34,649 nucleotides of DNA. Source: Chiloscyllium plagiosum (Eukaryota). Positions 2,204 to 25,990 of this stretch are shown in pieces. The DNA lies in assembly GCF_004010195.1 (NCBI RefSeq), contig NC_057754.1:3281427-3316075 (forward strand), in the 5' to 3' direction. A program made the position numbers and the translations under genes. Below the pieces are notes generated by a model. The model was not told the origin of the DNA. It saw only the letters and a list, made by a program, of their open reading frames with translations, and ran no database searches. Within the stretch, counting starts at the first letter, position 1. Every line of letters starts with the position of its first letter.

Positions 2204-2600
2204 TAAATCCCTTTGTTAGATTAGAAGCTGTCTGAACGTTGGGGCACAGACAGCCTCACCCCTTCAATACATTATCTTTGCCGATATGGCACCTACTGTT
2301 AAAGTTGAGAATGTAACTTTAAAAAAAAGTTCTGGGATTTACACATGAATGAACTGAAACCAACATGGTCATTCTAAAAGATGAGAGACTTAACAAACAA
2401 TCCAGGTCTTTTTCAACATATAATTTCAGGTACATCTCACTGTAAACGTTTGCTATAAATTCTGTGTCTTACAATCTTACACCCGATGAAGGGGCAGCGC
2501 TCCGAAAGCTAGTGCTTCCAAATAAACCTGTTGGACTGTCACCTGGTGTTGTGTGATTTTTAACTTTGTCCACCCCAGCCCAACGCCGGCCCCTCCAAAT
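2204..2600 (+). mobile_element. Penelope-like element 3' fragment with hammerhead-like motif
   Basis: AT-rich insert in the satellite. Its 3' ~120 bp (GAAAGCTAGTGCTTCCAAATAAACCTGTTGG...GTGTGATTTTTAACTTTGT) recurs at 5762-5887. Confidence 0.75.
2480..2514 (+). ncRNA. Degenerate minimal hammerhead ribozyme (core CUGAUGA mutated to CCGAUGA)
   Basis: cac-CCGATGA-a-GGGGC agc GCTCC-GAAA-GCTA-gtg. Stem I is cac/gtg, stem II is GGGGC/GCTCC with one G.U pair, stem III is the palindrome AGCT, and the predicted cleavage triplet is CUA. Confidence 0.7.
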
Positions 2601-2815
2601 CTCTCCATCTCAGTCTCTGTTTCAGCTTGTCTCAGTCTCTCTCTGTGTCTCTGCCTTAGTCTCTGTCTCAGGCTCTCCCTGCGACTCAGTCTCAATCTTT
2701 CTGTATCTCAGTCTCTCTCAGTATGGCTCAGTCTCTCTGTCAGTCCCTGTCTCTGTTTTTCTCCTCTCTCTCTCTCTCTGTCACAGTCCTGTCTCTGCCT
2801 CTCTCTCTCTCTCTC

Positions 2816-4060
2816 GTGCCCACTCCCTCAGCACTGACCCTCCGACAGTGCCCACTCCCTCAGCACTGACCCTCCGACAGTGCCCACTCCCTCAGCACTG
2901 ACCCTCCGACAGTGCCCACTCCCTCAGCACTGACCCTCCGACAGTGCCCACTCCCTCAGCACTGACCCTCCGACAGTGCCCACTCCCTCAGCACTGACCC
3001 TCCGACAGTGCCCACTCCCTCAGCACTGACCCTCCGACAGTGCCCACTCCCTCAGCACTGACCCTCCGACAGTGCCCACTCCCTCAGCACTGACCCTCCG
3101 ACAGTGCCCACTCCCTCAGCACTGACCCTCCGACAGTGCCCACTCCCTCAGCACTGACCCTCCGACAGTGCCCACTCCCTCAGCACTGACCCTCCGACAG
3201 TGCCCACTCCCTCAGCACTGACCCTCCGACAGTGCCCACTCCCTCAGCACTGACCCTCCGACAGTGCCCACTCCCTCAGCACTGACCCTCCGACAGTGCC
3301 CACTCCCTCAGCACTGACCCTCCGACAGTGCCCACTCCCTCAGCACTGACCCTCCGACAGTGCCCACTCCCTCAGCACTGACCCTCCGACAGTGCCCACT
3401 CCCTCAGCACTGACCCTCCGACAGTGCCCACTCCCTCAGCACTGACCCTCCGACAGTGCCCACTCCCTCAGCACTGACCCTCCGACAGTGCCCACTCCCT
3501 CAGCACTGACCCTCCGACAGTGCCCACTCCCTCAGCACTGACCCTCCGACAGTGCCCACTCCCTCAGCACTGACCCTCCGACAGTGCCCACTCCCTCAGC
3601 ACTGACCCTCCGACAGTGCCCACTCCCTCAGCACTGACCCTCCGACAGTGCCCACTCCCTCAGCACTGACCCTCCGACAGTGCCCACTCCCTCAGCACTG
3701 ACCCTCCGACAGTGCCCACTCCCTCAGCACTGACCCTCCGACAGTGCCCACTCCCTCAGCACTGACCCTCCGACAGTGCCCACTCCCTCAGCACTGACCC
3801 TCCGACAGTGCCCACTCCCTCAGCACTGACCCTCCGACAGTGCCCACTCCCTCAGCACTGACCCTCCGACAGTGCCCACTCCCTCAGCACTGACCCTCCG
3901 ACAGTGCCCACTCCCTCAGCACTGACCCTCCGACAGTGCCCACTCCCTCAGCACTGACCCTCCGACAGTGCCCACTCCCTCAGCACTGACCCTCCGACAG
4001 GGCCCGCTCCCTCAGCACTGACCCTCCGACAGTGCCTACTCCCTCAGCACTGACCCTCTG
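2816..4060. repeat. Near-perfect 32-bp minisatellite GTGCCCACTCCCTCAGCACTGACCCTCCGACA (~39 copies)
   Basis: Exact 32-bp period, with variants only in the last ~2 units. Confidence 0.97.
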
Positions 4061-4064
4061 ACCC

Positions 4065-4325
4065 TCGGGTCCGGAAGGGCCTGAGGGGGTGGTGTCACCG
4101 TGCGGTTGTTTGGCCGGTTGGGCCTGTCGTGTTGTCTGTGGTGGTTTAACCACGGGGCGGAGAATGTTCCGGAAGGGAAACAGCAGGTGGAATCCGTGGA
4201 GGCGGCTGACGTGGTGAGCTGAGTGACGTGGGAGAGTGGAGGCCCCAAACAGCCTGTTCCGGGCTCTCTCCCTGTGCGTGTGTCAGGGGCGAGGCCTTCG
4301 TGGGGGATCTCCCTTCCTCCTGGGT
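4065..4325. promoter_or_regulatory. GC/CpG-rich promoter-like island
   Basis: ETS-type CCGGAAG at 4071 and 4169, GC box GGGGCGG at 4154, CRE/ATF-like TGACGTG at 4207 and 4224, possible + strand donor GTG|GTGAGC at 4214. CpG density is well above the other unique sequence. Truncated by the gap. Confidence 0.55.
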
Positions 4326-4825
4326 NNNNNNNNNNNNNNNNNNNNNNNNNNNNNNNNNNNNNNNNNNNNNNNNNNNNNNNNNNNNNNNNNNNNNNNNNNN
4401 NNNNNNNNNNNNNNNNNNNNNNNNNNNNNNNNNNNNNNNNNNNNNNNNNNNNNNNNNNNNNNNNNNNNNNNNNNNNNNNNNNNNNNNNNNNNNNNNNNNN
4501 NNNNNNNNNNNNNNNNNNNNNNNNNNNNNNNNNNNNNNNNNNNNNNNNNNNNNNNNNNNNNNNNNNNNNNNNNNNNNNNNNNNNNNNNNNNNNNNNNNNN
4601 NNNNNNNNNNNNNNNNNNNNNNNNNNNNNNNNNNNNNNNNNNNNNNNNNNNNNNNNNNNNNNNNNNNNNNNNNNNNNNNNNNNNNNNNNNNNNNNNNNNN
4701 NNNNNNNNNNNNNNNNNNNNNNNNNNNNNNNNNNNNNNNNNNNNNNNNNNNNNNNNNNNNNNNNNNNNNNNNNNNNNNNNNNNNNNNNNNNNNNNNNNNN
4801 NNNNNNNNNNNNNNNNNNNNNNNNN
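4326..4825. other. Assembly gap (500 N)
   Basis: N run; the round size suggests a placeholder length. Confidence 0.99.
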
Positions 4826-5030
4826 GCGAATGTTCCTGTTGTATCTGATCCCCTTGCCTTTTCAGGCAGCACATCCCAGAACTCGCCACCTGAAACAAAA
4901 CATTCTCACCTCCTCAGTTTCGTTTCCCATTTCTCTTCAGTCTGTGTCCCTCTGGTTATTGACCCTCCTGCTGTTGGGAACAGTTTCCACCTTTCTACTT
5001 TCCGGCTCCCTCCGAATTGCCTCTGGATAA
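4826..5030 (-). mobile_element. Decayed CR1 LINE 3' region
   Basis: Minus strand resembles the CR1 ORF2 C-terminus (GAAACTGTTCCC...ACCAGAGGGACACAG...GATGTGCTGCCTGAAAAG). Confidence 0.55.
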
Positions 5031-5129
5031 TCTCCCAGAGGCTGACGCTACTGCAGGAGAGCTGCCCTCTCTGAGAAGCTGTCTTTCAGAGATTTCACCC
5101 CTGTGCGTCCAGCTAGCGGGCAGAGCTGA

Positions 5130-5340
5130 AAGATCCCAGGTCCTTTATTGGAAGGACAGTCGCTGGGCGCTCTCTGCCGTGGCCTGGAGCCAGTATTTGT
5201 TCCTCAACCTCCCTCAGAAAACCAAACATCTGACTCATTGGTACTGTCTACGGGAGCTTATTGTGTACACACACGCACACACACACTTTGGGATGGTCCT
5301 CCAGTTGTGAAAGGTGCTAGGCAAATGCAAAGTCTGTCTT
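5130..5340 (+). mobile_element. Decayed Deu-domain SINE (SacSINE1-like) 3' part
   Basis: CCTGGAGCCAGTATTTGTTCCTCAACC...GGGAGCTTATTGTGT...CACTTTGGGATG...GTGAAAGGTGCTAGGCAAATGCAAAGTCT. Confidence 0.6.
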
Positions 5341-5735
5341 CGCCTGGGAAACCTTGTATTTGGTACAGAAACATGCGGCAATGCTGGAGGTACTGTCCTG
5401 TGGTTCAAGTATGAGGCCAGGCCCTGCCGCCTTGTGAAACCGAACATGAAGGATCACACGCTACATTTTTTGGAAAAGCAAGGTATTCTCCTGGACAACA
5501 TTCACATTCAGCTCAAACCACCCACAACTGGCCTTCATAACCCCGATCCAATTCAGCATGGGACTCGGCTACCAAACCTTTCCAAACTCCCATTAATTAA
5601 CCCTCCCAGGAGGCTACAGTCCGATCGGAACAGAACACTGAGGCACTTTATTAAACTGGGATTGATTGACAACCAGGTAGACTTATTGAAGGAGCTTTAC
5701 TCTGGTTTGAACCCTGTGCTGTCCCTATCCTGGGG

Positions 5736-5887
5736 GTTAGTTAAAAATCACACCTGATAACCACTTGTTGAAGGAGCAGCGCACCGAAAGCTAGTGTGCT
5801 TCCAAATAAACCTGTTGGTCTATAACCTGGTGTTGTGTGATTTTTAACTTTGTACACCCCAGTCCAACACCGGCATCTCCACATCAT
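5736..5887 (+). mobile_element. Short PLE insertion with 5' inverted segment and decayed hammerhead
   Basis: AGTTAAAAATCACAC (5739-5753) is the reverse complement of GTGTGATTTTTAACT (~5835-5849). Motif cac-TTGTTGA-aGGAGC agc GCACC-GAAAGCTA-gtg at 5762-5795. TCCTGGG lies on both flanks. Confidence 0.75.
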
Positions 5888-5999
5888 GTCCTGGGAGTGT
5901 TTGATGGGGGATAGTGGAAAAGCTTTATTCTGTATCTAACTCTGTACTGTCCCTGTCCTGGGGAGTGTTTAATGGAGGGAACAGTGTAGAGGGAGCTTT

Positions 6000-6186
6000 G
6001 AACTGAAAAATGTGTTGCTGGAAAAGCGCAGATAAGTCTGCTAAAAAGCTAAGTTAAAAGCCTGCTTGGCACACCTTCCTCATTCCTGAAGAAGGGCTTA
6101 TGCCCGAAACATCGATTCTCCTTGCGCTTTTCCAGCAACACATTTTTCAGCTCGGATCTCCAGCATCTGCAGTCCTCACTTTCTCC
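6000..6186 (+). mobile_element. Fold-back PLE insertion with hammerhead motif and 14-bp TSD
   Basis: 28-bp inverted arms at 6003-6030 and 6123-6150. Motif attc-CTGAAGA-aGGGC ttat GCCC-GAAAC ATC-gatt at 6082-6117. GTAGAGGGAGCTTT is duplicated at 5986-5999 and 6187-6200. Confidence 0.82.
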
Positions 6187-8072
6187 GTAGAGGGAGCTTT
6201 ACTCTGTATCTAACTCTGTGTAGTACCTGTCCTGGGAGTGTTTGATGGGGGGACAGTGTAGAGGGAAGCTTCACTCTGTATCTAACTCTGTGCTGTCCCT
6301 GTCCTGGGGAATGTTTGATGGGGAGGACAGTGTAGAGGGAAACTTCACTCTGTATCTAACCGCGTGCTGTCCCTGTCCTGGGGGGATAGTATAGAGGGAA
6401 GCTTCACTTGGTAAGTAACTGTGTGTGTAGTACCTGTCCTGGGAGTGTTTGATGTCAGTGTAGAGGGAAGCTTCACTCTGTATCTAACTGTGTAATACTT
6501 ATCCTGGGAGTGTTTGATCGGGGACAGTGTAGAGAAAGCTTGTCTCTGTATCTAACCCCATGCTGTCCCTGTCCTGGGAGTGTTTGATGGGGGGACAGTG
6601 TAGAGGGAGCTTTACTCTGTGTCTAACCCCGTGCTGTCCCTGTCCTGGGGGTGCTTGTTGGGGGACAGTGTAGAGAGAGCTTTACTCTGTATCTAACCCC
6701 GTGCTGTCCCTGTCCTGGGGGTGCTTGATGGGGGGACAGTGTAGAGGGAGCTTTACTCTGTATCTAACCCCGTGCTGTCCCTGTCCTAGGGGTGCTTGAT
6801 GGGGGACAGTGTAGAGAGAGCTTTACTCTGTATCTAACCCCGTGCTGTTCCTGTCCTGGGGGTGCTTGATGGGGGGGACAGTGTAGAGGGAGCTTTACTC
6901 TGTATCTAACCCCGTGCTGTCCCTGTCATGGGGGTGCTTGATGGGGGGACAGTGTAGAGGGAGCTTTACTCTGTATCTAACCCCGTGCTGTCCCTGTCCT
7001 GGGAGTGTTTGATGGGGGACAGTGTAGAGGGAGCTTTACTCTGTATCTAACCCCGTGCTGTCCCTGTCATGGGGGTGTTTGATGGGGGACAGTGTAGAGG
7101 GAGCTTTGCTCTGTATATAACCCCGTGCTGTCCCTGTCCCTGGGTGTTTGATGGGGGACAGTGTAGAGGGAGCTTTGCTCTGTATCTAACCCCGTGCTGT
7201 CCCTGTCCTGGGAGTGTTTGATGGGGGACAGTGTAGAGGGAGCTTTACTCTGTATCCAACCCCGTGCTGTCCCTGTCCTGGGAGTGCTTGATGGGGATGC
7301 AATCAGGGACATAGCAAAGGGAACCTGAAGGTAGGAAAGGATTAACAATATAACACGGGGAGACCTCATAATGGAGAAATGTCTTGTACAAAAACAACGC
7401 TCACTCAAACTCCGATCCGGTGGGAAGTGGGTAACCGAGGCGGTGGTGCAACGAGCTGTGACATGAAAGATTAGCCAAACCCCTCAGGACATTTTTAGTT
7501 GGCCAGCAGATCTGGAAATGAAGACATCTACTGAATTTATCAGAGCACAAGGTTTTTTTAAAAAGGCATAGTGTTGGCAGCTGTAGGACAGCTCCTAGAG
7601 AGTTTCTGACTTGGCAAAATGTGTGTTGTGGATGCAGCAAGTGCTGATGCCTGTCAGAACAATCTCGCATGTCTATAGCGCCTCTCTCGACCTCTGGATG
7701 CCTCCAATCGCTTCACACCCAACGAAGCTCTTTTGTTCTGCCTCTATTCCACAGCAAGCTCCCACAAACAACTAACTGATAACCTCCCAGCATGTGTGCT
7801 CCTTGAGCCTACATTTTGGCCCCAAAGATGTGGGGGAGGACTAGACTCGCCCCACCTGCCTGCGCTTGTCCCCGACTTGGACTATGGGATCTGTTCCAGA
7901 GGGGACCTGGGGTCTTGGCTCGAACAATCACTTGGAAGGTGGTACTGCTGACACTGCAGCACTAACCCCACACTCTCAGTGGGTTTAGGTATCTGGAGAG
8001 GAAGATCCACGTCTCAGAGATAGGAAGCCAGCGCATCTGCACTGGAGAAACTCAATGCCTTCCAGGGTGGAG

Positions 8073-8700
8073 AAGCAACTATTAATGAAGAGATCCAGCA
8101 CTGCCTCCAGTGTGATCGCATAGCCTTCAGCCCCTTGAGGAAAAGGGTATTCGAGGACAACATCTGATCCGACACCAAGCTGTGGTGGCTCTGAGACATA
8201 GACTGTCTACAGCAGGCACCTCAAGGCACTGCAGCAGTCCCACCAATCCTGTCAATCTGCTGGGAAGAAAGATGCACCCAACACCAGTGTCCTTGACCAG
8301 GCCGACAGCCCCAGTACAGAGGCATTGATGGCCCTTGATCGGCTGTGATGGGCTGGGAACATTGTCTGACACGAGATTCCCTGAGCAGGTGCTCTATTCC
8401 CAGCTGAAACAGCAGGCGAGCCCCACGTGGACTGGCCTCACCGGCAAAGTGCGGAATTCCCATGGACACTTGGGAATCACTGGCTGAAGACTGTCCAAAG
8501 TGGAGGAGAAGCATGCAGGAAGGTGTTAGGCACCTCGGGACTTGCCGTTGGGGAAAAGTGGATGCCGGGTGAAAGGATCGCCCTGCCACACCAACGGCCC
8601 CACCCAGCCCACCTGCGGTCGCCCCATCAGCCGCCTACGGACTCACCTTGAGTGTGGAACAGAGTCATCCTCATCTGTGAGGGGCCACCAATGAATGAAT
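8073..8700 (+). mobile_element. RTE-clade LINE 3' fragment (frameshifted ORF C-terminus)
   Basis: Conceptual peptides INEEIQHCLQC..LRKRVFED, VYSRHLKAL, NTSVLDQA, RFPEQVLYSQL, KCGIPMDTWESLAEDCPKWRR; (ATGA)n tail. Confidence 0.8.
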
Positions 8701-8769
8701 TAGTTAGATCTCCCAGGAACTCAGTGCCACTGAAGTGGGTACCAAGCCCAAGATATGGTGCAGTAGCCT

Positions 8770-10055
8770 CAGACTGTGATGGAATAACACCCCCTCCCCC
8801 ATTGCCCTGGATTGGTGCACCTAAGAAGCTCAACACCATCCAGGACAAAGCAGCTGCTGGACTGGCAGCAAGATTGCTGCGTATGCTTCAGCCTTATCCT
8901 TTGCACCGACATGTTGGGCTCTTCCATCATTGAGAATGGGAAGGTCTGTGAAGACTCCTCCTCCAGTGGGTTGGTCAATTGCCCACCACCATTCACACCC
9001 TGATGTGGCAGGACTCCAGAGCTTCGATCTGATCTGTTGGTTGTGGGATCGCTTAGCTGTGTGTTATGGACCAGACCAAACTGCCTCAAAATACATTAAG
9101 AAGATAGCTTAGACCCTAGCTTTTTCATTTTTTTACAGGTAAGTGTAAGGTGTTGCAGTCCAGATGCAATTCGATTGGTCAAACTACTCAACTTTAAGCA
9201 AACCACACTTTCTTTCTTGCTTAACTGTAACGCTATTGAAATGCTTAACAAAGTAATATATATTAACTACTACTAATTAACTGCTCTAATATAGTAACAT
9301 CCCATAAACACACCCTAAGCAAAGGCAAATTCAGTAAAATACATGCAATTCTAGCAGCAGGGCAAGAACCCCAGCTTTCAGTTGTAACAGAAAGAGCAAT
9401 AAGAGCTTCCACATCCAGCTTCAAGACCCCAGCAATTGCTACTGAAAGCTAGAATTAAAAATCTTGATTCTGTGGGAGCCTGACGCCACCCATTCAGGCT
9501 GCTTCTATTGTTCCAACTTTTTAAAAAACCGCAAGGATTCACAATGTGTTTATTGGCTTTGAGCAGACTGCTCGACACCTCTGTCTCAACCTTTGTCCAT
9601 GAAACAACAGGAGAAAATATATCTCTTAAAGCCGTTGTATTATCACATGTGTCTATCACTTGCTGCTTAGGCTGTTTGGTATATGATTACCAACATTTTC
9701 CATGTTTGGTAGCTTCATCAGGTCAACACCTCAGCTTTAGGTCTGCCTGGTGCTGCATGCCCTCCTGCACTCTCCATTGAACTAGGGTTAATCCCCTGCA
9801 TTGATGGTAATGGTTGATTCGGGCATATGCCTGGCCATGAGATTGCAGGATTGTGCTGAAGTACAATTCTGCTGTTGTTGATGGCCCACAGCGCCTCATG
9901 GATGCCCATGAGTCTTAAGGCAAAACATTGGAACATTGGCCAGCATTGCAGGTCTACCTCCAGCACACAAGTGCAGCACTTCAGGGGGCAATTAGGGATG
10001 GGCGATAAATGCAGAGCCTTGCCAGAGATGCACAGATCCTCTGAATGGTGAAAAA
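8770..10055. mobile_element. Old CR1-group non-LTR retrotransposon remnant (clade unresolved), apparently internally inverted and split by a solo LTR
   Basis: + strand 8770-8870 gives KKLNTIQDKAA. Segments ~8871-9061 and 9648-9910 appear to be minus strand. + strand 3' tail GGGCAATTAGGGATGGGCGATAAATG at ~9986. Confidence 0.6.
9062..9647. mobile_element. Solo LTR (586 bp, Gypsy/ERV-type)
   Basis: TGTTAT...ATCACA termini (TG..CA, imperfect inverted ends). 4-bp TSD TGTG at 9058-9061 and 9648-9651. Removing it gives a continuous flank GCTTAGCTGTGTCTATCACTTG. Confidence 0.85.
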
Positions 10056-10315
10056 AGACCTCCCTGAGGCAGAGAGGTGACCGGCAATGAAGGCCGGTGG
10101 GAAGCAAGCCTCCTGGCCAGCCTGCTGTCAGCTGTCAGCCTGGTAACAGGGCCTTTCATGCATTCAGGGCCCCGCAGCTGGTTAGGCATCTCCCTCGCAA
10201 AAACAATGACTGCAGATGCTGGAAACCAGATTCTGGATTAGTGATGCTGGAAGAGCACAGCAGTTCAGGCAGCATCCAAGGAGTTTCGAAATCGACGTTT
10301 CGGGCAAAAGCCCTT

Positions 10316-11544: not shown

Positions 11545-12659
11545 GAAGGGCTTTTGCCCGAAACGTCGATTTCGAAGCTCCTTCGATGCTGCCTGAACTG
11601 CTGTGCTCTTCCAGCACCTCTAATCCAGAATCTCCCTGGCACCCTGCACTCTGAGAGCACACCCATTCAGCCTTACCCTCTACCCCCGCGTCCAGCAGCT
11701 GCTGTCCAATCGCACCAGCTCAGCTGATCGACTTGGAAGGCGTCAGCAGGTCAATGCGGCATTGGGGGCACCCTCCCACACACCTTTGCAAGGCTGGAAA
11801 GGAGCATGGGCAGGAGCACGTGCACGGGAAAGGGATGGAAATCCTAGCCAGAGGATTCCCTCGCGGTCCGGCATCGGAATGTATCGAGATCAGTGCTGCA
11901 GATGTGTGAAGTCATTCATCCGAGGAAGCCTAGAAAGGGACAGTGAGATTCCGTCTGTGGCCTTGATGCTGTGGCTTCATACCAGCGGCAGTTCACTGCA
12001 GCTGTTGACACACGAGCCCTACTGTGTACAAATTTTGGCTTTTCTATTATCCTTCCAGGAGTTCAAAAGCCTCTTTGCTGCTTTGCCAAATGTGCTTTCA
12101 ATTAGATCCTTTCCCTTGTCCTGTCCTCAGAGCAGCAACGCAGCTCGGTTCACCTAGGAGGGTAAACAGACGAAACTGCCTTGTGCTCCCTTCCCTTGTT
12201 GCTACTACTCAGAAGGTGGCTGTTCAGCCCTCTGGCCTGTGCAGGCTCTCTCGCGTGGCTTGTCTCTGCGCTCTGCCTCAGTCCTCCCACCTCCCCTTTC
12301 CCCAGTGCCCTGCAACTTCTTTAATGTCTCAGGGAATGAAAACTCCACTTCCTGCTCTCTCGGCGAGCACAACCCAGCTCATTACCGAGTCCCAGGTCAA
12401 AACACAACCCTATTCACCTGCCATCGCTGCCAAACATTTCAAATCCATGCGCGCCTGTTCTTTCATTTCTCCTGATCTACTGTGTCTAGATCTCTCAGTT
12501 TCTTGAACGCCTTAAATCTCCTCTGGATCTTCTCGTTCCCAAGACAGAGGGTCCCCAATCTCCAATCACTCCACATAATTCCAGTCTCTTGTTCCTTGGA
12601 GACATGGGAAGAAAAGCCGTTTTGTTTCCCACCCGCTCCCCGACACGGACGCAGAATGA

Positions 12660-14935: not shown

Positions 14936-15941
14936 CTGCGAAACACCTCAACACAATCAGTACAGGTCTGTGGCTGAGAACCATCTCATGAAGTACTTTG
15001 TCTGCTTTACCATAGAGGTGATGCTATATGACACATGAACAGTGTGCCGCACTGTCGGAGAGTCAGTGCTGATGGAGCGGCACACAGTCTAAGGATCAAT
15101 GCTGAGGGAGTGCTGCACTGTTGGAGGGTCAGCACTGAGGGAGTGCTGCACTGTCGGAGGATCAGCTCTGAGGGAGTGCTGCACTGTAGGAGGGTCAGCA
15201 CTGAGGGAGTGCTGCACTGTAGGAGAGTCAGCACTGAGGGAGTGCTGCACTGTCGGAGGGTCAGCTCTGAGGGAGTGCTGCACTGTCGGAGGGTCAGCTC
15301 TGAGGGAGTGCTGCACTGTAGGAGGGTCAGCACTGAGGGAGTGCTGCACTGTAGGAGGGTCAGCACTGAGGGAGTGCTGCACTGTCGGAGGGTCAGCTCT
15401 GAGGGAGTGCTGCACTGTAGGAGGGTCAGCACTGAGGGAGTGCTGCACTGTCGGAGGGTCAGCTCTGAGGGAGTGCCGCACTGTAGGAGGGTCAGCACTG
15501 AGGGAGTGCCGCACTGTAGGAGTGTCAGCACTGAGGGAGTGCTGCACTATCGGAGGGTCAGCTCTGAGGGAGTGCCGCACTGTAGGAGGGTCTGCACTGA
15601 GGGAGTGCTGCACTGTCGGAGTGTCAGCTTTGAGGGAGTGCCACATTGTAGGACGGTCAGCACTGAGGGAGTGCCGCACTGTAGGAGGGTCAGCTCTGAG
15701 GGAGTGCCGCACTGTAGGAGGGTCAGCACTGAGGGAGTGCTGCACTGTCGGAGGATCAGCTCTGAGGGAGTGCCACACTGTAGGAGGGTCAGCACTGAGG
15801 GAGTGCCGCACTGTAGGAGGGTCAGCTCAGCACTGAGGGAGTGCCGCACTGTAGGAGGGTCAGCACTGAGGGAGTGCCACACTGTAGGAGGGTCAGCACT
15901 GAGGGAGTGCCGCACTGTAGGAGGGTCAGCACTGAGGGAGT

Positions 15942-16141
15942 AAGTGAGGTCTGCAGATGCTGGAGATCAAAGTTGAAACTTTATTGCTGGAACAGCACAG
16001 CAGGTCAGGCAGCATCCAGGGAACAGGAGATTCGACGTTTCGGGCACAGGCCTGAAGAAGGGCCTGTGCCCGAAACGTCGAATCTCCTGTTCCCTGGATG
16101 CTGCCTGACCTGCTGTGCTGTTCCAGCAATAAAGTTTCAAC
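15942..16141. mobile_element. Young fold-back PLE: perfect 81-bp inverted repeat with 8-nt loop
   Basis: 15972-16052 is the exact reverse complement of 16061-16141. CAGCACTGAGGGAGT is duplicated at 15927-15941 and 16141-16155. Confidence 0.92.
16052..16083 (+). ncRNA. Minimal hammerhead ribozyme core with conserved nucleotides intact
   Basis: CTGAAGA-a-GGGC ctgt GCCC-GAAA-CGTC-gaat. Stem III is the palindrome ACGT and the triplet is GUC. The 5' strand of stem I (attc in the 6082 copy) is replaced by the inverted arm. Confidence 0.75.
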
Positions 16142-16544
16142 AGCACTGAGGGAGTGCCACACTGTAGGACGGTCAGCACTGAGGAAGTGCCGCACTGTAG
16201 GAGGGTCAGCTCTGATGGAGTGCCGCACTGTAGGAGGGTCAGCACTGAGGGAGTGCCGCACTGTAGGAGGGTCAGCTCTGAGGGAGTGCCGCACTGTAGG
16301 AGGGTCAGCTCTGAGGGAGTGCTGCACTGTCGGAGGGTCAGCTCTGAGGGAGTGCCGCACTGTAGGAGGGTCAGCACTGAGGGAGTGCCGCACTGTAGGA
16401 GGGTCAGCACTGAGGGAGCGCTGCACTGTGAGAGGGTCAGTACTGAGGGATTGGGCAATGTCGGAGGGTCAGTGCTGATAGAGCACCGCACTGTGGGAGG
16501 GTCAACGCCAAAGGAGTGCCAGTGCTGCACTGTCAGAGGGTCAG

Positions 16545-16810
16545 AACTAAGACATGTAAGCCAAACCCCCATCTGCCTTTCTAAATGGGTGTTAAATCCC
16601 ACAGCTGTAATTTGTAAGAAGAGCCCAGTGGTTGGGGTGGGGCTTTTCCCAGTGTCCCACAGGAGGCATGAACTTCACTGAGAGGAAACGTTGCAGTGGG
16701 TCATGATCACATTGCAGTCTGTGCGATGTTGCTGTGTGTAAATTGGCTGCTACCTTTTCTATATTATAATAACACGATTCTGCTACCTTTTCTATATTAT
16801 AATAACACGA
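16545..16810 (+). mobile_element. Deu-domain SINE remnant continuing directly from the minisatellite, ending in an exact 31-bp duplication
   Basis: CCCCATCTGCC..AAATCCCACAGC..AAGAAGAGC..CCAGTGTCC..ATCACATTGC..TTGCTGTGTGTAAATTGGCTGC. CTGCTACCTTTTCTATATTATAATAACACGA occurs at 16747 and 16780. Confidence 0.7.
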
Positions 16811-18504
16811 GACCATCACACTCCTGACTCATGTCTTGTAGAGGATGGACAGGCTTTGGGGAGTCAGGGTGGGAGAGGATTCCCAGCCTCTGACCTGATG
16901 ATTTACACGGCTGGTCCAGCTCAGTCTCTGATCTATGGTAGCTCCCAGAACATCGATGCTGTTATGGTAAAATTGAGCTGCAGTGGAGATACCCAACAGG
17001 TACAATTTTTGGACAGGAAGTTGATCAGAGGAACCCAGCTTCTGTTTGGTTAATCTGCACCGTCTGAATTCAACCAGTCAGGAGGGTCCCGATAAGAGAG
17101 TGTGGTTGCTTTGCAGGAAACTGTTAGAAATGAGTGCCATCTCTCTTTGCTCTCATAGGCTAACGCTCTGTGGGATAAAGTGTAAGGCTCACTGCACATT
17201 CATCATATTGTGGGTGACTGTGACTGAAATTGAATTGCTTGGCTTTCACTGAGAAAGAGTAATCCTATACCTATTTAATCCCCATGAAGGAGAGTCCTTT
17301 AGACTAATGGGATAATCAAAGTGCACACACTTAACCCTGAGTTAAGGTGAGGCCTGTTCACAGAGCTTTGCTGGCTGAACCTGGTGTTGTTTCAGGCTCC
17401 TCGAAAACAAACAGAAAGCAGCGACACCACGGTGCACACTGTACTGACAAACAACAGGCCACTTTCAGAAGGAAGCGACTGCACTGGAGAGAGTGCAGAG
17501 AGGCTTAGGAGAAAGGTTCCAGAGGTGAGAAACTTCTGCTCAGAGCCACATTCCGTCCCAGTGTTTCCTGCTGCTGGCAGGGACGTCTGGGCCTGGAATA
17601 CTCACTGATTGGTGTGCATGGACCCCCTGACAATGCCCAACCCACTCCCCACACCGGGGAAATGCCTCACAGGGATGGGACTGGCGCTATCGACAGAACC
17701 ACGCACCCCCCCGCCCTCTCACCAACTCCCTCAGAACTACTCCCTTGGCTGGAAGGCAGAGTGGGACGTCCTGAGGCTACAGAAATGCACCCCTGCTCTG
17801 CCTGGCACCTGTCCCGCAGGATGCAGGGAAGTGGGAGGTGCCTGGACCAAGGATCTCACTGTCACTGTTCATCATTGCCCCTCCTCACCCCCCAGTGCAC
17901 CCCACCTCAGGTGACGTAACCCCTCCTTCTTGCCAGCTCTGTCTGTCGAACCTGCCTTGATATATCGGCAGAGAGAAAGATCGTAACTAAACTTGTGTGG
18001 AGATGATAGTTCACTGAATTGGAGTGCGGGTCTATAAGCTCCCCCGAATAGACCCTCCCCTCCAATCCGGACTGTACGGCAATCACACTTTGGATGAAGA
18101 GAAGCTTTCAGCCAAATTAAACTGGGCCCTGGCTGCCTTTATCAAGTCAATATCTAGATGTCGAATTCTGGTTCACTTCCCGATTCCTGAAAGCATGACA
18201 ATGGGTAGCTGGCTGTAAAGTGATTAGCCGATAAGACTGCATATCTCTGTCAATCCACCCAAAACACTCCAGTAACTTAAACGGTGAAAGACCACACTGG
18301 TCCTTTCAGATAATGAAGAAACTCAACTGCACCAGGGGCAAAACAATGATGTAGTGGGAACACCCACAAGCCCCCTGGGTAATTCATTGGTTCAAACCCT
18401 CAGCACGCCAGCTGGCTGTGTTCAAACAAAAACAATCAATGTTTAAACCAAGTCAGCAACTGAAAGGCAGGCCTCAGTAATGGTCCTGAAGGGATCAGTG
18501 AGGG

Positions 18505-18610
18505 ATTCTGAAGAAGAATTAACCCGACTGGAAATGTTAATTCTGTTTCTCTCTCCACGGATGCTTCCAGATCCTGCTGGGTTCCTCCAGCACTCTCTGT
18601 TTTTAGTTCA
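18505..18610 (+). mobile_element. Old PLE terminal fragment with decayed hammerhead
   Basis: att-CTGAAGA-(stem II decayed)-GAAA-TGTT-aat at 18505-18541, followed by TCTCTCCACGGATGCTTCCAGATCCTGCTG, similar to the other PLE arms. Confidence 0.6.
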
Positions 18611-18729
18611 GTGACGATAACTCGATTGTCGTTTTTAAAAATTGCCTTTTAGTGAAGGAAATCTGCCATCCTTATCGAATCTGGTCCATCTAAGATCAAG
18701 AGAGGGTCTGGCAGCAGCTGTGGAGAGGG

Positions 18730-19067
18730 CGGGTGACGGCCTAGTGGAATTATCGCCGGACTGTTATTCCAGAGACCAAGGTAATGTTCTGGGAACCCAG
18801 ATTCAAATTCCATCACGGCAGATGCTGGAATTTGAATCCAATAAAAATCTGGGATTTAAAAGTTTAATGACAACCATGAATCCATTGTCAATTGTCAATT
18901 GTCGGAAAAACCCATCTGGGTCACTAATGTCCTTTGCAGAAGGAAGCTGCCATCCTTACCTGGTCTGGCCTACATGTGACTCCAGACCCACAGCAACGTG
19001 GTAGACTCGTAACTGCCCTCAGAAATGGCTGAACAAGCCACCCAGCTCAAGGGGCAATTAGGGATGG
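18730..19067 (+). mobile_element. tRNA-derived SINE with CR1-group LINE tail
   Basis: A-box-like CGGCCTAGTGG and B-box-like AGATTCAAATTCC. Body CCCATCTGGGTCACTAATGTCCTTT..CCTTACCTGGTCTGGCCTACATGTGACTCCAGACCCACAGC. Tail GGGCAATTAGGGATGG is shared with ~9986. Confidence 0.8.
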
Positions 19068-19080
19068 ACCTTGCCACTCT

Positions 19081-19548
19081 ATTTATTTCTTCAGAGGATG
19101 TGGACAACGCTGGTGAGGCTGGGGTTTCTGGTAAGTGAGTATTTATCACCCATCTCTAATTGCCCCTTGAGCTGGGTGGCTTCCTTCTCGAAACTGCTGC
19201 AGTCCATGTGGTGTACAGACACCCGCAGTCAGGAGGGAATCCCAGAATTATGACCCAGCGACAGTGTAAGAACGGCGATATATTTCCAAGTTGGGATGGT
19301 GAATTGCTCGGAGGGAAACATGCACTGGATGGTGTTCCCATGTATCTGCTGTCTTTATCTTTTTAGTAGTGGTCGTGGGTTTGGAAGATACTGTCTAAGG
19401 AGTCTTGGGGCACCTAGTAGATGGTACACACTGCTGCTACCATGCATCAATGTTGGAGGGAGTGAATGCTCATCAGTGTGGTGCCAATCGAGTGGGGGCT
19501 GCTTTATCCTGGATGGTGTCGAGCTTCTTGAGTGTTGTTGGAGCTGCA
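19081..19548 (-). mobile_element. CR1-group LINE 3' fragment (same family as 8770-10055)
   Basis: Minus strand encodes AAPTTLKKLDTIQDKAA. Tail GGGCAATTAGAGATGGGTGATAAAT on the minus strand at ~19141-19165. Confidence 0.75.
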
Positions 19549-19834
19549 GGGTTGAAAGGTGCTACAGAAGTGTCATGTACTGAGTGGGTGTCAAAGCTGG
19601 GACCCAAGGGCTGACCCAGGTACAGCTAAGTCCAGGAAGACCCAGAGGAAAGTGAACTTGGCCAAAACAAGATGCAACCAGAGCTGACTGCGCAGCCAGA
19701 ATGGTGACTTTCCCAGCACAGGACGCTTACGAATGCCACAGGACAGTTCCCAGCTCAGAGCCCAGGGGACAGTCGCAGGAAATTACTCATCAGCATTTGT
19801 CAAAATACCCACCCTGCAGTCTTCAAATGATCAA

Positions 19835-20092
19835 CTTTTACATAAAGGATGTGCATTTCTCTAGTGCCTCCACTAAGCTTCCCAGACAGAGAGGTTTTTA
19901 TTCAAGGGCACACACTGTTGTAGAGTCGGAGAAGCATGGGCCAATTTGCCTACAGCAAGCTCCAGCACACAGCCAGATGCTCCATTTCTCTATCAGTGAT
20001 GTTTACTGAGGGCTACGGATCAGCCAATGGAGACAGGGTAGAACCCTCCACACCCACACCCACTCTTCTTCTAAACGCAGCCAAGGACCATT
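19835..20092 (-). mobile_element. Deu-domain SINE 3' remnant abutting the minisatellite
   Basis: + strand TGCATTTCTCTAGTGCC..GCCAATTTGCCTACAGCAAGCTCC..AGTGATGTTTACTGAGGG..GACAGGGTAGAAC..CTCTTCTTCTAAA..GCCAAGGA. Confidence 0.6.
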
Positions 20093-20104: not shown

Positions 20105-20990
20105 CAGTGCCCACTCCCTCAGCACTGACCCTCCGACAGTGCGGTGCTCCCTCAGCACTGACCCTCCGACAGTGCCCACTCCCTCAGCACTGACCCTCCG
20201 ACAGTGCCCGCTCCCTCAGCACTGACCCTCCGACAGTGCCAGTTCCCTCAGCACTGACCCTCTGACAGTGCCAGTTCCCTCAGCACTGACCCTCCGACAG
20301 TGCAGTGCTCCCTCAGCAGCGACCCTCCGACAGTGCGGCGCTCTCTCAGCACTGTCCCTCCAACAGTGCCCACTCCCTCAGCACTGACTCTCCGACAGTG
20401 CCCACTCCCTCAGCACTGACCCTTCGACAGTGCGGTGCTCCCTCAGCACTGACCCTCCGACAGTGCGGCGCTCCCTCAGCACTGACCCTCTGACTGTGTG
20501 GCCATCCCTCAGCACTGACCCTCTGACAGTGCCCACTCTTTCAGCACTGATCCTCCGACAGTGCAGCGCTCCCTCAGCACTGACCCTCCGACACTGCGGT
20601 GCTCCCTCAGCACTGACCCTCCGACAGTGCGGCGCTCCCTCAGCACTGACCATCCGACAGTGCGGCGCTCCCTCAGCACTGACCCTCCGACAGTGCGACA
20701 CTCCCTCAGCACTGACCCTCCGACAGTGCCCACTCCCTCAGCACTAACCGTCCGACACTGCGGCGCTCCCTCAGCACTGACCCACTGACAGTGCGGCGCT
20801 CCCTCAGCACTGACCCACTGACAGTGCGGCACTCCCTCAGCACTGACCCTCCGACAGTGCCCACTCCCTCAGCACTGACCCTCTGACAGTGCAGTGCTCC
20901 CTCAGCACTGACCCTCCGACAGTGACTATTCCTTCAGCACTGACTGTCTGACAGTACCCACTTGCTCAGCACTGATTCCCCAACAGGGCA
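20105..20990. repeat. 32/33-bp minisatellite array (mixed units)
   Basis: Interspersed GTGCCCACTCCC (32-bp) and GTGCGGCGCTCCC (33-bp) units. Confidence 0.95.
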
Positions 20991-24262: not shown

Positions 24263-25990
24263 CAGCGCTGACCCTCCGACAGTGCGGTGTTCCCTCAGCG
24301 CTGACCCTCCGACAGTGCGGTGTTCCCTCAGCGCTGACCCTCCGACAGTGCGGTCTTCCCTCAGCACTGACCCTCCGACAGTGCGGTGCTCCCTCAGCAC
24401 TGACCCTCCGACAGTATGGCACCCCCTCAGCACTGACCATCCAACAGTGCGGTGTTCCCTCAGCACTGACCCTCCGACAGTGTGGCACCCCCTCAGCACT
24501 GACCCTCCAACAGTGCGGTGCTCCCTCAGCACTGACCCTCCGACGGTGTGATGTTCCCTCAGCACTGACCCTCCAACAGTGCTGTGCTCCCTCAGCACTG
24601 ACCCTCCGACGGTGTGATGTTCCCTCAGCACTGACCCTCCGACAGTGTGGCACCCCCTCAGCACTGACTCTCCAACAGTGCGGTGTTCCCTCAGCGCTGA
24701 CCCTCCGACAGTGCGGTGTTCCCTCAGCGCTGACCCTCTGACAGTGCGGTCTTCCCTCAGCACTGACCCTCCGACGGTGTGATGTTCCCTCAGCACTGAC
24801 CCTCCAACAGTGTGGTGCTCCCTCAGCACTGACCCTCGGACTGTGCGGTGCTCCCTCAGCACTGACGTTCCGACAGTGCGGTGATCCCTCAGTACTGACC
24901 CTCTGACAGTACCCACTCCCTCAGCACTGACCCGCACTGACCTTCCGACAGTGCGGTGCTCCCTCAGCACTGACCCTCCAACAGTGCGGTGTTCCCTCAG
25001 TACTGACGTTCCGACAGTGTGGTGTTCCCTCAGCACTGACCCTCCAACAGTGCGGTGTTCCCTCAGCACTGACCCTCCGACAGTGTGGTGTTCCCTCAGC
25101 ACTGACCCTCCAACAGTGTGGTGTTCCCTCAGCACTGACCCTCCGATGGTGTGATGTTCCCTCAGCACTGACCCTCCAACAGTGCGGTCTTCCCTCAGCA
25201 CTGACCCTCCAATGGTGTGGTGTTCCCTCTGTGCTGACCCTCCAATTGTGCGGTGCCACCTCAGCGGTGACCCTCCAGTGGCGCGGTGTTCCCTCAGCAC
25301 TGATCCGCTGGTGGTGCGGCACTTTCTCAGCGTTGACCCTCCGATACCGTGGTGTTCCCTCAGCACTGACCCTCCGATAGTGCGGCGCTCCCTCTGTGTT
25401 GATCCTCTGACAGTGCAGCACTCCTTCTGTGTTGACCCTGACAGTGCAGTGTTCCCTCAGCACTGACCTTCCAACAGATTGGTGCTCCCTCAGTGCTGAC
25501 TCTCCAATAGTGTGGCACTCCCTCAGCACTGATCCTCCGACAGTGCGGCATTCCCTCTGTGCTGACCCTCTGACAGTGCAGCACTCCTTCTGTGCTGACC
25601 CTCTGACAGAGCAGTGCTCCCTCAGCACTGATTCTCCAACAGTATGGCGCTTGCTCAGTGCTGACCCTCTGATAGTAGGGCGCTTGCTCAGTGCTGACCG
25701 TCCGATACTGCGGCGCTCCCTCAGCACTTACCCTCAGATAGTGTGGTGTTCCCTCAGCGCTGACCCTCTGATGGTGAGGCACTCCCTCTGTGCTGACCCT
25801 CTGACAGCGCAGTGCTCCTTCAGCATTGATTCTCAGACAGTATGGCGCTCGCTCAGCACTGACCCTCCGATACTGTGGCGTTCCCTCAGCGCTGACCCTC
25901 TGATAGCGAGGCACTCCCTCTGTGCTGACCCTCTACAGTGCAGCATATCCTTGACTCTCATCCTCTTACAGTACGGTGCTTCCTCAATAC
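24263..25990. repeat. 33-bp minisatellite array, increasingly diverged rightwards
   Basis: CAGCACTGACCCTCCGACAGTGCGGTGTTCCCT units. Confidence 0.95.

Follow-up and report, generated by a model that had tools for sequence, protein, structure and literature searches.

The window examined here, a stretch of 34,649 nucleotides from Chiloscyllium plagiosum, contains a 200-bp insert at positions 15942 to 16141 that breaks a host array of 33-bp minisatellite units. Its longest perfect inverted repeat measures 81 bp, with arms at 15972-16052 and 16061-16141 and a loop of 8 nt. A 15-bp direct repeat at 15927-15941 and 16141-16155 encloses the insert, and the first base of the right copy is also the final base of the insert. 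The first 30 nt (15942-15971) have no partner in the arms and form the one-sided tail of the element. Once the insert and one copy of this target site duplication (TSD) were deleted in silico, the phase of the host minisatellite was regained. The original prediction, which had described a 200-bp insert with a 15-bp duplicated flank and 81-bp arms without mismatches, was exact on re-measurement. Neither the insert nor its arms are due to chance, since all 40 scored candidates, out of 554 found by searching the species' own genome with the insert, were 100 % identical over 200 bp, and all 30 fetched loci had different flanks. These flanks are unrelated, the right end is fixed, and the left end extends a few bases further. 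The predicted very young age of the element is also upheld.

Positions in the element are given on the coordinate scale of its parent. Here, +1 is the A of a motif upstream of the ribozyme that we take to be an initiator-like element, C3 of the ribozyme is +5, and the ribozyme cut lies after +32. On the 3' side, the first end site is +94 and the tail ends at +129 to +135 across the family. Inr-like motifs are also named in PMC3846280, echoing the initiator label. On this scale, the insert consists of parent +124 to +14 in inverted orientation, joined via a 2-nt overlap to +4 to +94, and four of the five missing tail bases are matched by the last target bases. The features of the locus are listed below.

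15044..16504, no strand: host 33-bp minisatellite array, broken by the insert
15927..15941, + strand: left TSD copy, a direct repeat, part of the host 33-bp minisatellite unit
15942..15971, - strand: one-sided tail, parent +95 to +124 (concept of the tail from PMC11167929 and PMC8557442)
15972..16052, - strand: left arm (parent +14 to +94) without the CUGANGA box, owing to a 5' truncation at the base of stem II
16051..16052, no strand: 2-nt microhomology at the inversion junction, claimable by both arms, with 5' ends at +14 (tail arm) and +4 (other arm)
16051..16141, + strand: right arm with loop (parent +4 to +94), whose end lies at the fixed first reverse transcriptase (RT) start site
16052..16079, + strand: minimal type I hammerhead core (features according to PMC4209133)
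16141..16155, + strand: right TSD copy, a direct repeat

The parent of the insert was sought in the whole assembly, which comprises 3.56 Gb in 101,977 contigs and contains 15,965 exact matches to a 24-mer of the arm. Coding copies have a frame with RT and GIY-YIG domains, up to 749 sense codons long, directly followed by the same end module at 98-100 % identity. The 749-aa frame of locus L223 matched RVT_1 with 35.4 bits (cut-off 29.6, E 1.2e-8), and GIY-YIG with 21.5 bits, just below the curated cut-off of 22.6 (E 2.9e-4). The parent ORF has the RT and C-terminal GIY-YIG domains that characterize EN+ Penelope-like elements, and a 3.3-kb copy with part of this ORF has the same two termini and a TSD. 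The adjoining position of end module and ORF upholds the proposed Penelope-like origin, and the insert can be identified as the end module of a young and abundant Penelope-like element. The minimal unit itself has no ORF, as expected from the prediction of a non-coding insert. By inspection, the translated parent frames contain a C-x4-C-x2-C linker. A CX2-5CxxC linker upstream of GIY-YIG is a Neptune trait common to Nematis (PMC8557442), and the linker of the parent points to the Neptune type.

The insertion unit of EN+ Penelope-like elements is composed of a pLTR, an adjacent inverted 5'-truncated copy and a one-sided tail of 30-40 bp (Craig et al. 2021, PMC8557442; Arkhipova et al. 2013, PMC3846280). 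The insert resembles these units in its head-to-head inverted and 5'-truncated copy inside one TSD, in the tail at one end, which is 30 nt long here and 35-41 nt across the family, in the hammerhead of the pLTR and in a parent with RT and C-terminal GIY-YIG domains. It differs in being a minimal case without an ORF and in a TSD of about 15 bp, compared with 8-10 bp in the rotifer Penelope-like elements of the same two papers. The insert is an ordinary minimal case of the known inverted-plus-tail insertion pattern. Fold-back DNA transposons and MITEs carry inverted repeats at both termini and a short TSD of fixed length. An origin of this kind is at odds with the one-sided tail, the variable TSD of 10-20 bp, the variable apex and the RT-encoding parent.

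The original prediction had also placed a hammerhead ribozyme core at the apex of the hairpin, and the minimal motif is real. On the + strand, CUGAAGA begins at 16052 and the GAAA-C-GUC box at 16072, with the presumptive cut after 16079. The core positions comprise C3 (16052), the bulged A (16059), stem II (16060-16063/16068-16071), G12 (16072), a two-base palindrome (16076-16077) and C17 (16079). Like the minimal hammerheads described by Cervera and de la Pena (2014, PMC4209133), the parent has the catalytic boxes, a bulge after A9, the G10.1-C11.1 pair, a palindromic 15.2-16.2 and a helix I of 4 bp. In the window copy, stem I is reduced to 1 bp, as had been noted, and falls short of the 4-5 bp of this helix. 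Another similarity is that pairs on opposite strands, 100-700 bp apart, are noted in that paper. Helix II has 4 bp, compared with 7-8 bp in Schistosoma families (PMC4209133). A relaxed pattern found 58,133 exact cores across subfamilies in the genome, against about 4,000-9,000 obtained with a different descriptor in coelacanth and Xenopus (PMC4209133). Across subfamilies, N7 and loop II vary and stem II holds, the latter being fixed by the search pattern. A descriptor applied to 645 kb of fetched, family-enriched loci gave 184 matches, compared with none in one shuffle. These matches include a second motif family, in which the paired stems I and II differ and the palindrome is reversed. The suggested comparison with the Rfam hammerhead models gave no match, neither at E<=1 for the window nor at E<=10 for a parent copy; in both, only sub-threshold miRNA or lncRNA matches appeared, which reflect the hairpin.

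In the folding prediction for the window copy, an open core with stem II kept costs 38 kcal/mol (-185.0 vs -146.7), in line with the earlier view that the ribozyme is sequestered in its own hairpin. Minimal hammerheads of Penelope-like elements are characterized by self-cleavage as a dimer or with the help of a protein, whereas the clipped ribozyme motif of this insert is predicted to be inactive. As modeled, the hammerhead, which has lost most of stem I and is predicted to lie hidden in the hairpin, would be a passenger, and the window copy is probably dead.

For an unselected view of the family, the first 100 matches on contig 1 were all fetched, and nine locus identifiers were dropped as duplicates. 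Of the resulting 101 arms at 75 loci, 43 end at +88 to +101, 44 at +124 to +140 and 14 elsewhere, some of the latter having been cut by indels in the ungapped walk. The same arms start at -2 to +7 in 65 cases, at +8 to +14 in 12 and further upstream in 24. An inverted partner lies within 160 nt at 37 of the 75 loci, and solo arms ending at either site also have duplications. Genome-wide counts were restricted to arms that deviate from the parent at both of the two bases upstream. Of their 5' ends, 1,799 fall at +1, which is 4 nt ahead of the ribozyme core; the position of the ribozyme cut has 132 and a control position 273. Because of this distribution, the template RNA likely starts at stem I (+1) and is not cut by the ribozyme, a start that is read from DNA ends only. 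A ribozyme-cut RNA as the template was ruled out since 5' ends at the cut are not in excess over the control. A splice acceptor behind the +1 edge was likewise ruled out, as the parent has, by eye, no AG directly before +1. RNA reads of one single-cell run on a parent copy showed no pile-up of starts or ends. An uncleaved RNA template is in line with PMC11167929.

The ends of the insertions were analyzed in 110 of 151 fold-backs, namely those with both canonical ends and a TSD of at least 10 bp; 86 of the 151 had been chosen for the apex of the window, and their targets are independent. The TSD is 13-16 bp long in 94 of the 110. The final duplicated base is G in 47 and 41 of the 110 at the two ends, respectively, and each of the next three target bases after the nick is C in 45-62 of 110 on both strands. 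On average, target and RNA overlap by 1.76 nt (n=95) at one end and 1.74 nt (n=92) at the other, compared with 0.59 and 0.71 in a simulation without pairing. Judged by these patterns, both ends resemble sites of priming. Cutting and extension of both target strands by a Penelope-like protein have been shown in vitro; the protein is predicted to dimerise, and two start sites bound the tail (PMC11167929). In that study, initiation is reported to occur in the absence of target homology, which differs from the short overlaps of the present family.

The shared nick motif, the overlaps at both ends and these in vitro data together lead to a model of two-ended priming. The insert very probably consists of two short head-to-head copies of the end module, likely made in one event in which both target strands primed cDNA on element RNA. 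In the insert itself, the observed ends are parent +94 for one arm and the tail for the other, and the two arms meet in a microhomology of 2 nt. At a G/CC(C/A)-like site, the element protein would introduce nicks in the two strands with a spacing of about 15 nt, and each target 3' end would pair with 1-3 RNA bases and prime at the RT start site at +94 or at about +130. Since the RNA likely starts at the initiator-like +1, both cDNAs would run out after 90-130 nt. Their ends would then be joined by microhomology and the gaps filled, the joining step being inferred. The hairpin would be rebuilt at each insertion, and the same apex would recur because few joins are possible at that RNA end.

In LINE-1 twin priming, two target ends prime two cDNAs that are joined by microhomology, which leaves an inversion inside one TSD. 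The insert is alike in its two primers and its microhomology-joined inversion in one TSD. Unlike in twin priming, the second primer here would use a fixed, element-encoded start site near the 5' end of the RNA, and for this reason the two cDNAs would overlap and form a hairpin. A close experimental system is PAc, the Poseidon element of Anolis carolinensis (Frangieh et al. 2024, PMC11167929), which shares the two RT start sites bounding the tail, the cutting and extension of both target strands, as read here from genomic ends, and an uncleaved RNA template, with no pile-up at the ribozyme cut here. The present family differs from PAc in its Neptune-type cysteine linker, in a G/CC-like target motif compared with ATT, and in junctions that overlap the RNA by 1-3 nt (PMC11167929). 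Animal non-LTR retrozymes (bioRxiv 10.64898/2026.07.22.740005) are likewise non-coding, hammerhead-bearing and derived from Penelope pLTRs. A circular RNA intermediate is a further trait of retrozymes. Their direct tandem repeats with a ribozyme per unit set them apart from the insert, which has a single inverted unit and one clipped ribozyme. Among the titles and abstracts found in the literature, none states a model of two-ended priming for Penelope inversions.

Whether the apex is inherited or rebuilt was addressed by a genome-wide pattern search, which found 2,538 tight fold-backs of the subfamily. The first 50 have 30 different apices, of which 21 were seen once and the commonest six, five and five times. 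The apex of the window occurs in two of the 50 and is not the commonest. Recurrent apices mostly have an overlap of 1-3 nt and are found in both orientations. Genome-wide, the apex of the window recurs in 96 copies with the tail on the shorter arm and in 17 flipped copies. Among the first 50 fold-backs, the tail arm is more truncated in 29, the other arm in 16 and neither in five (three values were corrected for point variants), and stops at +12 to +14 occur on the tail arm in ten and on the other arm in three. Of the 96 same-apex copies, 86 were examined, and a TSD was found by script in 73 and by eye in at least nine of the other 13. No 20-mer is shared in either flank of the 86. The check put forward with the original prediction, whether copies share the apex or vary in it, thus gave a mixed answer: the apex does recur, yet it is one of 30 among the first 50 fold-backs, which favors independent by-products of inversion. 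The idea of a mini-element replicating as a unit was not supported, given this variety of apices and the absence of a common flank. A single replicating unit, as it appeared from the first search with the 200-bp insert, was rejected since such a search selects for identity; the unselected pattern searches overturned it.

Substitutions within the arms bear on the same issue. Six of the 86 same-apex copies have a private substitution in both arms, and among the first 50 fold-backs, seven have both-arm variants, with two variants each common to two loci, including one at the free N7 position of the ribozyme. Substitutions in both arms at once are expected if one template sequence feeds both arms; symmetric variants could also arise from arm-to-arm conversion or assembly. 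The 86 copies also have 35 one-arm substitutions, and those that are shared lie at CpG sites, except one in two copies. A 1-nt deletion in the tail occurs in 184 copies with many apices, and two of 30 carriers have the apex of the window. This deletion was discarded as an unreliable lineage marker, as the daughters of a single source differ in whether they have it. The apices of L188 and L192 are complex: one has switched back to the antisense strand upstream, the other contains a 12-nt duplication, and both point to template switching in the course of joining.

Longer inverted copies of the family have been copied again. One long inversion junction (-218/-644) recurs at 33 loci, including L115-L120, L123 and L297-L308, with cDNAs that cross it and stop at varied positions; L304 and L308 share two unequal arms. 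This recurrent junction points to an inverted master copy. A fold-back of about 450 bp occurs together with unique flank at four fetched loci (L058/L309, at 1404-1980 of L058; L061, at 2393-5404; L319; L321), which have the junction, an unusual arm end and the unique flank in common and differ in their tail-side sites. Three of the four share at least 1.53 kb at 99.9 % identity, and one forms an insert of 2,988 bp enclosed by a TSD of 14 bp. Taken together, these loci point to flank transduction from an inverted source copy, and such re-copying with flank is a route by which Penelope-like elements move host DNA.

By analogy, the 200-bp fold-back could be the daughter of a transcribed fold-back master, whose - strand read-through RNA would provide both RT start sites and be copied through the apex. 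The 96 copies in one orientation compared with 17 in the other, the at least 40 copies with 100 % identity and the re-copied longer inverted copies would fit this reading. It is nevertheless improbable: the apex is found in only two of the first 50 fold-backs, and no 20-mer is common to the flanks of the 86 copies, whereas daughters of a longer master do carry its flank. In addition, the 35 one-arm substitutions include a single shared non-CpG change, in two copies, the orientation bias is general (ten versus three of 50 for other joins at +12 to +14), and the 81-bp duplex is predicted to bury the +94 start site. Flipped and symmetric products could also result if a fold-back RNA were primed at both sites, so that a master for the apex of the window is disfavored only. 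It is likewise unlikely, if slightly less so, that the 96 same-orientation copies descend in part from re-inserted read-through transcripts of inverted copies, with fold-backs as a second generation of templates. If true, this would make the element a self-propagating hairpin retroposon. Re-insertion with the junction and up to kilobases of flank was seen for two longer inverted sources.

Self-priming of one cDNA by folding back, as proposed for palindromic Penelope junctions (Arkhipova et al. 2013), is a very improbable origin of the hairpin. The apex can form a snap-back of 2 bp with an 8-nt loop on the - strand, junction palindromes are read in this way in PMC3846280, and a few copies have complex template switches at the apex. 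However, in the orientation of the window (96 copies), the strand capable of snapping back begins at +94 and offers no tail for copying, which makes a second cDNA necessary. Further counter-evidence comes from the nick motif and primer-like overlap, which are the same at both ends, and from solo arms that end at either site. The genomic ends favor two-ended priming over the self-priming and endonuclease-resolution readings of PMC8557442 and PMC3846280. That the perfect symmetry and identity are an artefact of assembly is hardly credible. The assembly, from which the exact insert is known, is fragmented, with N runs at long copies; yet each copy has its own TSD, the 35 one-arm differences are kept among the 86 copies, and removing the insert restores the minisatellite phase.

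The window locus itself is of little importance. The family offers useful natural data on the way in which Penelope-like elements complete their insertion. In its thousands of young, nearly identical copies, the nick motif is the same at the two ends, each end has a short overlap, and the stagger is about 15 bp; two start sites and a front edge of the RNA at stem I of the ribozyme are also seen. The model is directly testable in the existing in vitro system. At 16050-16052 and at a junction of L062 near 5250, both of recurrent types, a cDNA end lies at a target-like G/CC step. It is a speculative thought that the endonuclease might trim nascent cDNA at this step.

RNA reads of the family came from one single-cell run. 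Run X22 gave 523 reads on a parent copy, in both orientations and with 88 % running into unlike sequence, a pattern as for read-through of scattered copies; run X23 gave none. All six places with A>G changes in family RNA reads also vary in a DNA run. The unique flank at 16560-20050 received 15 partial reads, on repeated bits only, in about 2 % of one run, which is too shallow to call the region silent. At the locus itself, these reads gave no sign of transcription or editing, and the read-through hairpin of the original prediction would be a hypothetical Dicer or ADAR substrate.

In a search for a host gene, 38 frames of at least 100 aa were compared with Pfam, which yielded no host family, one neighboring RT fragment and one weak match below the cut-off. 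Related 33-bp minisatellites form three arrays in opposite orientations, at 15044-16504, 20114-20924 and 24263-25941. At 2816-4062, 39 copies of a 32-bp unit with 99 % identity lie beside a run of N and may be assembly fill. Older relatives of the end module, 70-82 % identical, occur at 6061-6186, 10210-10315 and 11545-11616. In the first of these, a hammerhead core is preserved at 6086 and the tail lies on the right-hand side; a decayed copy at about 5760-5880 resembles, by eye, the second hammerhead motif family.
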